Below, piece by piece: positions 12,001-15,000 of a stretch of DNA of 64,000 nt. This DNA is from Escherichia coli (GTDB taxonomy: Bacteria > Pseudomonadota > Gammaproteobacteria > Enterobacterales > Enterobacteriaceae). The stretch is taken from NCBI RefSeq assembly GCF_029227855.1, contig NZ_CP074357.1. One strand, 5' to 3'. Numbering within the stretch: position 1 is the first letter of the stretch; every line of letters starts with the position of its first letter. A program made the position numbers.

Positions 12001-15000
12001 ATGCCTCGTCATCAGTAACCTCGGGCCGGTTGCTAAGAGTGATGTCACGGATGTCTGAATTGAAGCGGTGCTCGTTCTCATCGCAATACCAGTTCGCCCG
12101 GTAAGTACGGCTGGAATAAGTATTCCATTCGCTCGTGAAAAGACATTTACCACCGATGGCATCAAATCCGCTTCGCAGTCCACCTATCCCTGCAAACAGA
12201 TCGATAAAGCTAAAGTGCCTGTCCTCATAATCAGCAGGTCGTGAAGGTATTAAAGTCTGTAGATAGCGTCCATCTGCGATACTCAGCTCACAATGCTCAG
12301 GTATGCATGTAACCTGACGTTTAAGGGATGCACGGGACCAATTACTGCCATTTTCATCATTTAATACCTGAGCCAGATATTTCAGGTCATAAATGGTCGA
12401 AGCTGTTAACAAAGTTTTGTGGATCAGAGATGGTGTTTTATCCACATCATTCAGGTCTGTCTCAAGATCATGAGTGTAACGTTTCATCCAAACTCTCTCA
12501 GGAATAATATCTTTGAGATAGATTAACACGCTTAATTTGGATTATTTTTTGGTTCAGGTTCTAAATTTATTGTGATTATTCTGCCTTTAAGTTGCAAAAA
12601 GATTGGTTTTAAGCCCGCCCATGAAATAATGACTTGTTAAAATACTGCCTGTAAATAGGCTTGTGGATACATGTCTGTACTCAACAAATCAAGGTGAAAT
12701 GATGTTTTTTTTAACAAAGTTACTTTTGCCCATCATGATTGTTGTATTCCCAGTGGCGTCCTGGGGGAACTCAACAACTTTTGAGGCAAAGGTGGTTAAG
12801 ATTGTTGACGGTGACACCATAACTGCGTTGGATGCTCAAAACACAACCATCAAAATACGGATGTATGGTATAGACGCTCCTGAATCTAAACAGGCTTTTG
12901 GCCAAAAAGCAAAACAGGCCTTAACCACAGCTATAGCAACTAAAATCGTTACCGTGATAGACCATGGTACGGATATCTATGGCCGTATGTTAGGTACCAT
13001 CTGGTTAGATGGATATGATATCAATGCCTCTATGGTGGACAGTGGATATGCGTGGGTTTATCGGTTCGAAGATAACGCCATTGTCCCTGGCTATATCAAA
13101 TATGAATCCGCAGCACAAAAGGAGGCAAAAGGGTTATGGGCAGACACCAACCCTGTCCCACCATGGCAGTGGAGACAGGCAAACGAAAAGCCCAGAAAGG
13201 TGAAAGAGAAGAAATAACCATGATGAAAGAGCCTCATCCGTTACTTCAGTTGGTACTAAACGATTCCGGTCGTCTAACCATGCCTGTTTATTATAGAGAT
13301 CAACAGTATTGCCCGACTTGCCTTACAAAGGTGTTGAAGAGTGAGGATGGAAGTTTGGCGCACCTCGGGGAAATAAATCAAAATACATGTAGACCTTCTA
13401 TTTCAGTAGTTGTGACAAAAGCAATTATTGAAATGTTATGTGACGGGGAAAAAATATATGTAAATCCAATACGACACCGAGGCCGGGTGCTGGCACCCTC
13501 AGTAATTTTTTCTCCCGACACTCACACTTTCAAACCGTTTATAAATACAGACTATCAGCCTGTGGGAGCAAACTGGAAAAGTGAAAAGGGATATAAACTC
13601 GGTCTGTTTTATCTCAAAGATCGAGCCAACTCTATCAATAAAGAGGAATTTGATTTCATTGCCGTTATAGACCCTGAGGCAATGCAGAAAGAATTTATTT
13701 CGGCCTGGTCTGAGGTTGATGAAAAAAATCCATTGGAAACGCTGAAGCAGATCTTACGATCTAAAAACAACTCTTCTTTATGGGTAAAATGGCCTGGCAA
13801 AATTGAGCATGCGCAAAAAGGAAATTACAACGAAAATTACTGGTTCGATTATCAATCTGATAATCAGGAAGTGAACTGTACGGTCTCTGTTGTAGGTATC
13901 GAAGGTAACAGTTCCGGTGAGACAATTTATAGATTGCAAACTTTGCTAAAGCGTAAGCTCAATGAATATCAACTGGTTCGGTCTTTAGGGACTATTATGC
14001 TTCTTGATAATACCGGGAATATGATTCCATCAAACCATCCTTATTTTGAAGTCATCTCAAAAGCATGTATAAATGGAGTGCGTGACTTTGTTCGTCAAAA
14101 CCCGTGGGTAGTCTGACGGTCAACTATAAAGCATAATATAATTAGTAATAACAAGGAACAGACATGAATGAAAACTCAGTAATCTTAATAAGTTTATTTT
14201 GGTTTTTTTTGGGATCGAGTGTTGTAGCTGGTTTTATGGATGCATCATTATATTGCTGGATTTTTGCAGCCATAAGCGCATTGTTTCTTCTTTCGGTGAT
14301 ACAAACACCAAAGGAGTTAACGGTATCTATTAGTCATATGACAAGCAAAACGCTGATCTCAAAGACAGATGATGGATACACATTTAGCATTTCACCTTAC
14401 GGAGACGGGTACCGCTTATCAGTCTCGCCTGAAAATCGTCACAATGGTACCCAAAGCTTTGACGGCTGGTTCCCACGTTTTTTTTCCGAACCACAGTATG
14501 CCAAATCATCTTTAACTAAATTTCTCGGTGAGTCCTTAGTATGGGAAGAAGATTCAAGTAATGCTCTATGAGATTACTTATTATAAATTTTTCTATTAAT
14601 CTCCATGGAGTGATATATGAATTTGGCCTATTTTTTATTTTTGTCTATAACTGTTATGCTTACGAGCTTTATTATTAAATCACTTGTCGTATTGGTAAAG
14701 TTCAAATTACTTCGTGATGAACGTCTCGAATATACCAGCAATAAAAATATTGATGAGATGTACGATTTAATGAATGCGAAGGAAGAAATCCTCATAAGGC
14801 ATCATAAGCAGATGTTGGCATTGCATCTTTCACTATTAATATTCGTTCTATTTATTGCTTACATTTACTAAAAATAATTTTATTCAACATTTCAACAAAG
14901 GGTTTTCAATGGAAAGCTTCGAAACTGAACAAATGATTCAATATGCTTTCTACATAAATATCGTAATAACGACTGGTTTGGCATGGTTTTGCTTGCGGTC

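Follow-up and report, generated by a model that had tools for sequence, protein, structure and literature searches.

A predicted exported SNase-family nuclease in the IncHI2 plasmid backbone, followed by an orphan protein and divergent from a Dcm-type methylase

Does a nuclease gene lying back to back with a DNA cytosine methylase on a plasmid belong to a paired DNA-targeting system, or do the two genes merely travel together? The question arises in a 64,000-nt stretch of Escherichia coli DNA (the window), which is an IncHI2 plasmid with the nuclease gene in its conserved backbone. Positions 11000-14200 are matched by 1,203 plasmid records, including 1,127 at ≥99% identity and 1,031 typed as conjugative; the records examined singly type as IncHI2A/MOBH, and no tra genes or oriT were seen in the parts of the window checked. 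The initial annotation had described an SNase homologue with a signal-peptide-like N-terminus, transcribed divergently from a Dcm-like methylase, and this description holds: the methylase occupies 11060-12487 on the minus strand and the nuclease 12702-13217 on the plus strand. The co-regulation and shared DNA-targeting function that it went on to suggest fared differently, as set out below.

The nuclease gene (12702-13217, +; 171 aa plus stop) is defined by an ORF spanning 12663-13217 (+) and by matches to PF00565 and PDB chains. We place its start at ATG 12702 because this codon follows a ribosome-binding site read from the sequence (AAGGTGA, 12691-12697, +; its AGG core is kept in the alignment of relatives), aligns with the ATG of a 76%-identical relative, and is the start annotated by RefSeq in pSTM6-275, where WP_001572389.1 ('thermonuclease family protein') has identical coordinates; ATG 12699 and GTG 12663 (both +) are less likely starts. 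The protein matches the Pfam SNase profile from position 1 to 107 of 107 (PF00565, E 3.9e-24, 85.6 bits), above the curated cut-off of 21, which places it within the SNase (thermonuclease) family, and about 280 solved chains of Staphylococcus aureus nuclease in the PDB match it at ≤1e-3 (best 1.3e-10). The catalytic OB-fold domain maps to 12852-13145 (+; Pfam envelope, residues 52-149 of a 172-aa form). BLASTP and HMMER alignments to S. aureus nuclease A, in agreement with the PDB matches, equate D38, R53, D58, E61, Y93 and R95 (171-aa numbering) with D21, R35, D40, E43, Y85 and R87, with D38 just N-terminal to the domain and the other five within it. All Ca2+-ligand positions (D38, D58 and the backbone of A59) and the catalytic R53, E61 and R95 align, and because these residues are present the concern that the protein might lack them falls away. 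Comparison with the copy in pKpn-431cz, whose module sits between tet(A) and ars accessory regions, shows purifying selection (pN 0.154 against pS 0.856, given separately and not as a dN/dS ratio because synonymous sites are saturated). The gene is real and, judged by its sequence, encodes an ordinary exported SNase-type enzyme, predicted to hydrolyse both DNA and RNA in a Ca2+-dependent manner.

Export is predicted from the N-terminus, where residues 1-20 (MFFLTKLLLPIMIVVFPVAS; 12702-12761, +) show the features of a Sec-type signal peptide by hydrophobicity and the -3/-1 rule. A single lysine (K7) precedes a 12-residue hydrophobic core (L8-V19; 9-residue Kyte-Doolittle mean up to 3.2), and the sequence continues with WG, giving two candidate sites that fit the rule, VAS/W and SWG/N, so that cleavage would fall after S20 or G22. 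The protein is not a lipoprotein, since its N-terminus contains no Cys. Among 120 database homologues, nearly all complete sequences place an n-h-c architecture, diverged in sequence, before the DGDT motif, and close relatives carry canonical sites at the aligned position (AVLA/G, SLA/G, AFA/A). With its single positive charge in the n-region and best -1 residues of S or G beside Trp, in place of a textbook AXA site, the N-terminus could alternatively stay uncleaved and leave the nuclease cytoplasmic or anchored in the inner membrane, acting on intracellular or transferring DNA; the canonical sites of close relatives and the near-universal signal across the family make this extremely improbable.

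The closest characterized relative is S. aureus nuclease A (thermonuclease, or micrococcal nuclease), which shares the full-length PF00565 domain (33% identity over 135 residues) with all six of the residues equated above, and is likewise secreted through an N-terminal signal. The plasmid enzyme differs in its Gram-negative plasmid context, its lack of a propeptide, a basic C-terminal tail (PVPPWQWRQANEKPRKVKEKK), a likely destination in the periplasm and not the medium, and two substitutions, T41 to A59 and K84 to I92; in nuclease A, T41 ligates Ca2+ through its backbone. A second point of reference is the Nuc endonuclease of the IncN plasmid pKM101, likewise encoded by a conjugative plasmid and reportedly exported, non-specific and without a clear role in transfer. 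Nuc is an analogue and not a homologue, since it has the unrelated, metal-independent phospholipase-D/HKD fold. Among plasmid nucleases it is cited for its solved structure (PMC5714352). pKpn-431cz also carries a gene of the PLD family. The initial annotation noted that periplasmic nucleases are known on conjugative plasmids, and predicted exported nucleases are indeed common on plasmids: homologues of the present gene occur in >5,000 plasmid records, and in >1,100 near-identical plasmids RefSeq labels this very gene 'thermonuclease family protein'.

Immediately downstream lies a gene for an orphan 298-aa cytoplasmic protein, here called X (13220-14116, +). Nuclease and X form an operon in that order, and translation of X is probably coupled to that of the nuclease because a gap of 2 nt separates its start from the stop codon before it; in relatives the junction consists of 4-8-nt overlaps or gaps of ≤18 nt. 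This arrangement had been overlooked in the earlier reading. Searches for X returned no Pfam, NCBIfam, PADLOC or PHROG match, no detectable family or fold (endonuclease families and folds included) and no transmembrane segment. A word-index search found 34 relatives of X and an exhaustive profile search 26; in every version, down to ~22% identity, X comes directly after an SNase gene. The tightest and constant partner of the nuclease is X, not the methylase. X is also the fastest-evolving member of the locus, at 22-52% identity where the nuclease retains 46-76%. Only about 10 paired nuclease-X sequences exist.

A coupled, cytoplasmic downstream gene that evolves faster than the nuclease before it recalls toxin/inhibitor pairs of the barnase-barstar or colicin-immunity type, in which X would shield the cytoplasm of the producer before export. 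X is, however, split by insertion sequences in at least eight IncHI2 plasmids from E. coli, Shigella, Salmonella and Klebsiella, with the nuclease intact in the two checked: IS1203 interrupts X in plasmid 1205p1, where the nuclease coding sequence is intact, and seven further records show an IS-sized split at X and list a transposase of the IS3 family there. Because IS1203 disrupts X in plasmids that keep the nuclease, X is not an essential immunity protein, as an inhibitor indispensable to carriers of an intact nuclease would be. Many SNase homologues on other plasmids also lack X, X is twice the size of the enzyme, and SNases require Ca2+ far above free cytoplasmic levels, S. aureus itself needing no inhibitor of its nuclease. 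We consider a toxin/inhibitor pair highly improbable.

On the other side of the nuclease lies a Dcm-type DNA cytosine-5 methyltransferase of 475 aa (11060-12487, -), apparently an orphan. It matches PF00145 (E 3.8e-75, plus DNA_meth_N) and NCBIfam PRK10458 'DNA cytosine methylase' (845.8 bits, cut-off 710), its best PADLOC model is 'orphan methyltransferase' (683.8 bits), and it keeps motifs I, IV, VI, VIII and X intact (FAGIGG, PCQPFS, ENV, QHRER, GNSV). With E. coli Dcm and M.EcoRII, which act on CCWGG, it shares the Dcm-type N-terminal domain as well as these catalytic motifs, and the same specificity is predicted for it; unlike theirs, its surroundings hold no recognisable vsr gene or EcoRII-type endonuclease. 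After a 60-nt gap the methylase is followed by a conserved small protein of 55 aa (10832-10999, -; phrog_25588, E 1.8e-24, a family without an assigned function), and then by a 439-aa DUF1173 protein (9490-10809, -; PF06666, E 4.6e-39). The three genes probably form one transcription unit in which DUF1173 is last. A published description relates the DUF1173 family to PD-(D/E)XK proteins, notes that the active-site signature is missing and adds an N-terminal Zn motif (PMC3045609).

The region between the two divergent units measures 214 bp (12488-12701, 33% G+C), not the ~170 bp first proposed; the earlier boundary at 12530 was wrong because it assumed a GTG start for the methylase, whose conserved start is the ATG at 12487. 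Upstream of the nuclease-X operon lies a candidate extended -10 element (TGTTAAAAT; 12635-12643, +; 59 nt before the nuclease ATG). Each of the seven module versions tested has a single TGnTAnAAT element (at least 5/6 to TATAAT), always 58-71 nt before the nuclease start codon, against a chance of 4-13% per spacer estimated by shuffling, which suggests that the operon is transcribed from an extended -10 promoter of its own. On the methylase side the only conserved patch is TAnCACGCG (+ strand), and it contains a weak, speculative candidate extended -10-like element for the methylase (TGTTAATCT; 12520-12528, -; 32 nt before the methylase start codon). Elsewhere the spacer cannot be aligned among the seven versions compared, and a generic two-hexamer promoter scan performed at chance level (2 found, 1.7 expected). 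The idea that the spacer holds a shared operator or a regulatory RNA was considered and rejected, given short repeats at chance level, the unalignable spacer and the absence of any Rfam family at E≤1 across 9000-18000 apart from a chance snoRNA match inside X. The co-regulation of nuclease and methylase that had been suggested finds no support: the promoter-like elements of the two genes are separate and ~110 bp apart, and one version of the locus is recombinant between its two halves.

Beyond the immediate neighbours, the conserved module extends to a DUF4942 protein at its left end (7190-8008, +; PF13708, E 2.8e-26) and a 401-aa coiled-coil protein (8005-9210, +; coiled-coil-type matches only), a pair co-conserved in the loci (L002, L011, L015, L017, L019-21, L023 and L029). 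The methylase/nuclease/X arrangement, together with DUF1173, the 55-aa gene and DUF4942, recurs in about nine diverged versions with saturated synonymous sites (pS 0.77-0.89), on plasmids and in the chromosomes of several Enterobacterales, and possibly beyond this order because some copies come from metagenomes. Across these versions the 55-aa protein is kept at 47-64% and DUF1173 at 57-95%. The claim that the nuclease/methylase pairing is unusual is thus only partly right: more distant plasmid SNases, on IncHI1B, IncC, IncA, Acinetobacter and MOBC plasmids, have no methylase beside them, but the pairing is no one-off. DUF1173 adjoins the SNase gene even where the methylase is absent. A leading-region location of the module, beside oriT on the side that enters first and among ssb/psiB/ardA-type genes, was considered from pSTM6-275 upstream of the locus, from pKpn-431cz and from an IncHI1B plasmid; in the last of these, 3 kb separate DUF1173 and its SNase neighbour from psiA, and ~10 kb from transfer genes.

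Such persistence at saturated divergence exceeds what would be expected of unrelated neighbours and leaves room for a functional link. One possibility is that methylase, nuclease and X, with DUF1173, constitute a single co-functional system, whether restriction-modification-like, defensive or anti-defensive, in which self DNA would be marked by cytosine methylation and the methylase could have X, not the exported nuclease, as its partner. Consistent with this, a methylase fragment lies ~2 kb away even at L025, the most divergent of the loci that contain X, methylase and X tend to share their state, whether intact or decayed, X evolves rapidly, as specificity or immunity partners often do, and DUF1173 belongs to a PD-(D/E)XK-related family (PMC3045609). 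Against it stand discordant cases, with the methylase broken and X intact in L017 and the reverse in L028, among sampled lineages that are few and not independent. The nuclease itself survives intact at loci whose methylase is in fragments, truncated or IS-replaced (L017, L015, L013/14, L032). In L029 the methylase side is 81-95% identical to IncHI2, the nuclease 67% and X 44%, and on these identities the locus is a recombinant whose breakpoint separates the methylase side from the nuclease side; the spacer, as noted, is unconserved. No PADLOC defence model fits beyond generic methylase and SNase models, and no cytoplasmic site-specific endonuclease cognate to the methylase, as in type II restriction-modification, was found. 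A restriction-modification-like logic is topologically implausible because the nuclease carries an export signal and comes from a non-specific family while the methylase is cytoplasmic and site-specific. We regard one co-functional system as unlikely, though by no means negligible. We give a similarly modest outside chance to the broader idea that the methylase and the divergent nuclease-X pair, with DUF1173, the 55-aa gene and DUF4942, form a functional module, so far unrecognised, on enterobacterial plasmids and in genomic islands, with X a new family tied to the methylase, the nuclease or both; the activity of such a module may be, for example, methylation-aware DNA handling or anti-defence.

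A plasmid-borne nuclease of this type suggests another role. ParB of the IncP-1 alpha plasmids RP4/RK2 is reportedly an SNase-type nuclease, said to be localised in the periplasm, and a maintenance function acting on plasmid DNA might be extended from it to the IncHI2 enzyme, especially as 'plasmid stabilization protein ParB' is the name that some depositors give to homologues at ~39% identity, and homologues often occur among maintenance genes (ccdAB, parA/korB, H-NS, HU). In the parCBA operon the nuclease gene lies between parC and the parA resolvase gene, divergent from parDE. To our knowledge, the part of the ParB nuclease itself in RP4 stability was never established. RP4 parB is listed as 'Nuclease' within this multimer-resolution and stability operon (PMC7314908). 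The IncHI2 gene has no such neighbourhood: no ParA resolvase, ParC equivalent or parDE-like toxin-antitoxin genes adjoin it, and it is instead coupled to X and flanked by the Dcm-type methylase. Since the export signal would also place the enzyme away from plasmid DNA, we think a maintenance role very unlikely.

Methylases and SNases also meet on conjugative elements elsewhere. Orphan methylases are a recognised anti-restriction device of plasmids (PMC11541004), and the establishment clusters of the pLS20 family of Bacillus carry a C5 or N6 methylase or an anti-restriction gene and, on four plasmids, a putative SNase-like thermonuclease as well (PMC8708921), so that the combination on one conjugative element is not unique. 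Those clusters are Gram-positive and contain no homologous module, with neither DUF1173 nor X reported there.

Taken together, we favour, as the probable explanation, a Sec-exported, Ca2+-dependent, sequence-non-specific SNase-family nuclease of the IncHI2 backbone that is not mechanistically coupled to the methylase. The enzyme would be made with a cleavable signal peptide, remain inactive in the low-Ca2+ cytoplasm and act on free DNA and RNA once in the periplasm or farther outside, through an active site in which an Asp/Asp pair binds Ca2+ and an Arg/Glu/Arg triad catalyses. An extended -10 promoter of its own would drive its transcription together with that of cytoplasmic X, which follows it in a two-gene operon, while the methylase, an intact orphan enzyme presumably modifying CCWGG in intracellular DNA, would head the divergent unit with the 55-aa gene and DUF1173; the two units would travel together as one old mobile-element module. 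The searchable literature on IncHI2 nucleases, EcnA, RP4 ParB and plasmid periplasmic nucleases yielded no experiment or expression data for this gene. Our best guess, held with low confidence, is that the nuclease destroys or scavenges extracytoplasmic DNA, and it could thereby serve as a barrier to free foreign DNA, in nucleotide salvage or in matrix DNA turnover.

For the pairing that raised the question the outcome is mostly negative: nuclease and methylase do not make up an unusual restriction-like system, and the nuclease is a known kind of gene, already annotated in RefSeq. What is new lies in the orphan protein X and in the long-lived seven-gene module to which it belongs. IncHI2 plasmids, whose backbone still holds many unexplained genes, rank among the main vehicles of multidrug, colistin and heavy-metal resistance, and an exported backbone nuclease could affect the uptake of free DNA, the DNA of the biofilm matrix and nucleotide scavenging by the host.

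The SNase-family gene lies in the backbone of IncHI2 plasmids, as indicated by plasmid matches and by the typing of the records opened. Positions 11000-14200 matched 1,203 plasmid records, of which 1,031 are typed as conjugative; 1,127 matched at ≥99% identity, mostly from Escherichia, Salmonella, and Enterobacter. Those opened were IncHI2A/MOBH plasmids of 220-330 kb, e.g., pSTM6-275 and Shigella 1205p1. The remainder of the window holds resistance genes, a ter (tellurite) operon toward the 3′ end, and six complete IS26 copies (847-1669, 24905-25728, 26697-27532, 33998-34819, 45004-45825, and 47006-47825), which, with a partial copy (38084-38384), are 99.5-100% identical and cut the window into resistance segments.

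Within the nuclease reading frame (12663-13217, +), an AAGGTGA ribosome-binding site, alignment with the start codon of a 76%-identical relative, and the RefSeq call all back ATG 12702 as the true start, giving a 171-aa product. This protein spans the whole Pfam SNase profile (E 3.9e-24) and matches ~280 solved staphylococcal nuclease chains. The catalytic SNase residues are present, since D38, R53, D58, E61, Y93, and R95 align with D21, R35, D40, E43, Y85, and R87 of nuclease A; T41 of nuclease A, a position that ligates Ca2+ via its backbone, is replaced by Ala. The gene thus withstands the refutation initially proposed, absence of these residues. The N-terminus, MFFLTKLLLPIMIVVFPVAS/WG (slashes, putative cleavage), is laid out like a Sec signal (n-h-c) and lacks a lipobox. 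Of 120 database homologues, almost all whose sequence is complete have this type of N-terminus ahead of the DGDT motif, with freely drifting sequence but retained layout, and close relatives carry textbook cleavage sites, e.g., AVLA/G and AFA/A. The sequence thus gives good support to the predicted export, and the nuclease is probably periplasmic, in agreement with its initial annotation as a thermonuclease homologue with a predicted signal peptide. Comparison with the copy on plasmid pKpn-431cz indicates purifying selection (pN 0.154, pS 0.856). This is a genuine, already annotated SNase-type gene of the IncHI2 backbone, and a literature search found no functional study of it. S. aureus nuclease A and RP4/RK2 ParB are its closest characterised analogues; pKM101 Nuc, with a different fold, is a functional analogue only. 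Alongside its SNase module, pKpn-431cz encodes a 177-aa protein (L022, locus 5443-5976) of the phospholipase-D family, to which pKM101 Nuc belongs, and so holds two unrelated small nuclease-family genes.

Examination of the neighbourhoods of nuclease homologues at graded distances revealed a recurrent gene order: DUF4942, coiled-coil, DUF1173, 55-aa gene, and methylase, divergent from the nuclease and X, a 298-aa orphan protein. This order was found on an IncFIB/MOBF Klebsiella plasmid, on Salmonella contigs, on 4.8-Mb chromosomal contigs, in several metagenomic versions, and, decayed, in Photorhabdus. Identity falls to 46-49% for the nuclease and about 20-22% for X, and synonymous sites are saturated between versions, so the synteny is old and retained. 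The DUF4942, 401-aa coiled-coil, DUF1173, and 55-aa (phrog_25588) genes (7190-10999) are co-conserved with methylase and nuclease in most versions. In L019 (4.8-Mb chromosomal contig CP010512.1, locus 9244-10691), genes of the Thoeris type (ThsB TIR, ThsA Macro) are found ~1.3 kb away from a chromosomal copy of the module, which thus has a defence-island-like neighbourhood.

The methylase (11060-12487, −) is an intact Dcm-type C5 enzyme with all catalytic motifs (PRK10458, 845.8 bits; cut-off 710), for which the best PADLOC model is "orphan methyltransferase"; the 55-aa and DUF1173 genes follow on its strand after gaps of 60 and 22 nt. Its divergence from the nuclease had been correctly noted, but the proposed ~170-bp control region is in fact a 214-bp spacer (33% G+C), since the conserved methylase start is ATG 12487 and not GTG 12529. 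The spacer cannot be aligned between module versions, and two elements persist: an extended −10 (TGnTAnAAT, 12635-12643), a candidate nuclease promoter that occurs a single time in each version, 58-71 nt before the nuclease ATG (4-13% chance per spacer), and a short conserved patch (12520-12528) some 35 nt ahead of the methylase start codon. The two genes would then each have a promoter of their own, placed back to back ~110 bp apart. In L029, a homologous locus (JGI 3300012233 contig, 204-7562), identity to window 7190-14116 is 91% for DUF4942, 81% for the coiled-coil, 95% for DUF1173, and 83% for the methylase, vs. 67% for the nuclease and 44% for X, indicating that the module halves recombine independently, the breakpoint falling at the divergent spacer or close to it. 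Homologous loci with a fragmented or missing methylase (L017, L015, L013/14, and L032) likewise retain an intact nuclease. Taken together, this evidence leans against functional or regulatory coupling of methylase and nuclease, and hence against the suggestion of co-regulated DNA-targeting functions. The methylase might instead be partnered with X, a reading we retain because the block is very long-lived and the two genes are mostly both intact or both decayed (in a small sample of non-independent lineages); it is nevertheless improbable, as the unalignable spacer and the L029 mosaic count against it as well. For methylase and nuclease, a restriction-modification logic is implausible, the former being cytoplasmic and site-specific and the latter predicted to be exported and non-specific. 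In two E. coli chromosomal contigs (L013/L014), a 71%-identical nuclease survives alone with a 66-aa X remnant; IS21 elements occupy the methylase position and T6SS gene fragments flank the nuclease.

The nuclease instead heads an operon, overlooked initially, with X (13220-14116, +), which begins 2 nt past the nuclease stop and appears translationally coupled to it. X had no match in Pfam, NCBIfam, PADLOC, or PHROG, and no PDB sequence or fold match. A word-index search found only 34 relatives, and an exhaustive profile search across 1.84 billion representatives only 26. Among the motifs conserved in X are FDFIAVID, GETIY.LQ, and LLLDNTGN. In Shigella flexneri plasmid 1205p1 (L028, locus 2979-4192), IS1203 interrupts X while nuclease and methylase are intact, and an equivalent IS-sized split of the region occurs in seven further IncHI2 records, so that X is unlikely to be a nuclease immunity protein. 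Downstream of X lie four small ORFs (14164-15463, +; 135, 84, 113, and 76 aa), all of which contain a strongly hydrophobic stretch; the first is partly conserved in other module versions (56-62% over ~70 aa).

Nuclease homologues occur in >5,000 plasmid records, and those on more distant plasmids lack both methylase and X as neighbours: IncHI1B (52% identical), Acinetobacter (40%), a MOBC plasmid (40%), and IncC and IncA (38%). Frequent neighbours of these homologues are genes for the nucleoid-associated proteins H-NS or HU and, in some cases, DUF1173, which adjoins SNase even in methylase-less IncHI1B plasmids. Across Klebsiella IncHI1B (L003/L005/L010), Acinetobacter pA85-3 (L006), and IncC/IncA (L004/L008) loci, H-NS lies 0.3-1.3 kb and HU ~60 nt downstream of the SNase; the IncHI1B loci additionally have psiA and a RadC-like gene close by. 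A paper on pLS20-family plasmids names both a C5 methylase and a thermonuclease of SNase-like type among the establishment genes (PMC8708921). The methylase-nuclease pairing, initially called unusual, is indeed absent from distant plasmid SNases but recurs beyond the window: it is a lineage-specific conserved block, neither a universal rule nor a one-window curiosity. What novelty remains lies in X, the nuclease's orphan partner, and in the conserved module of seven genes.
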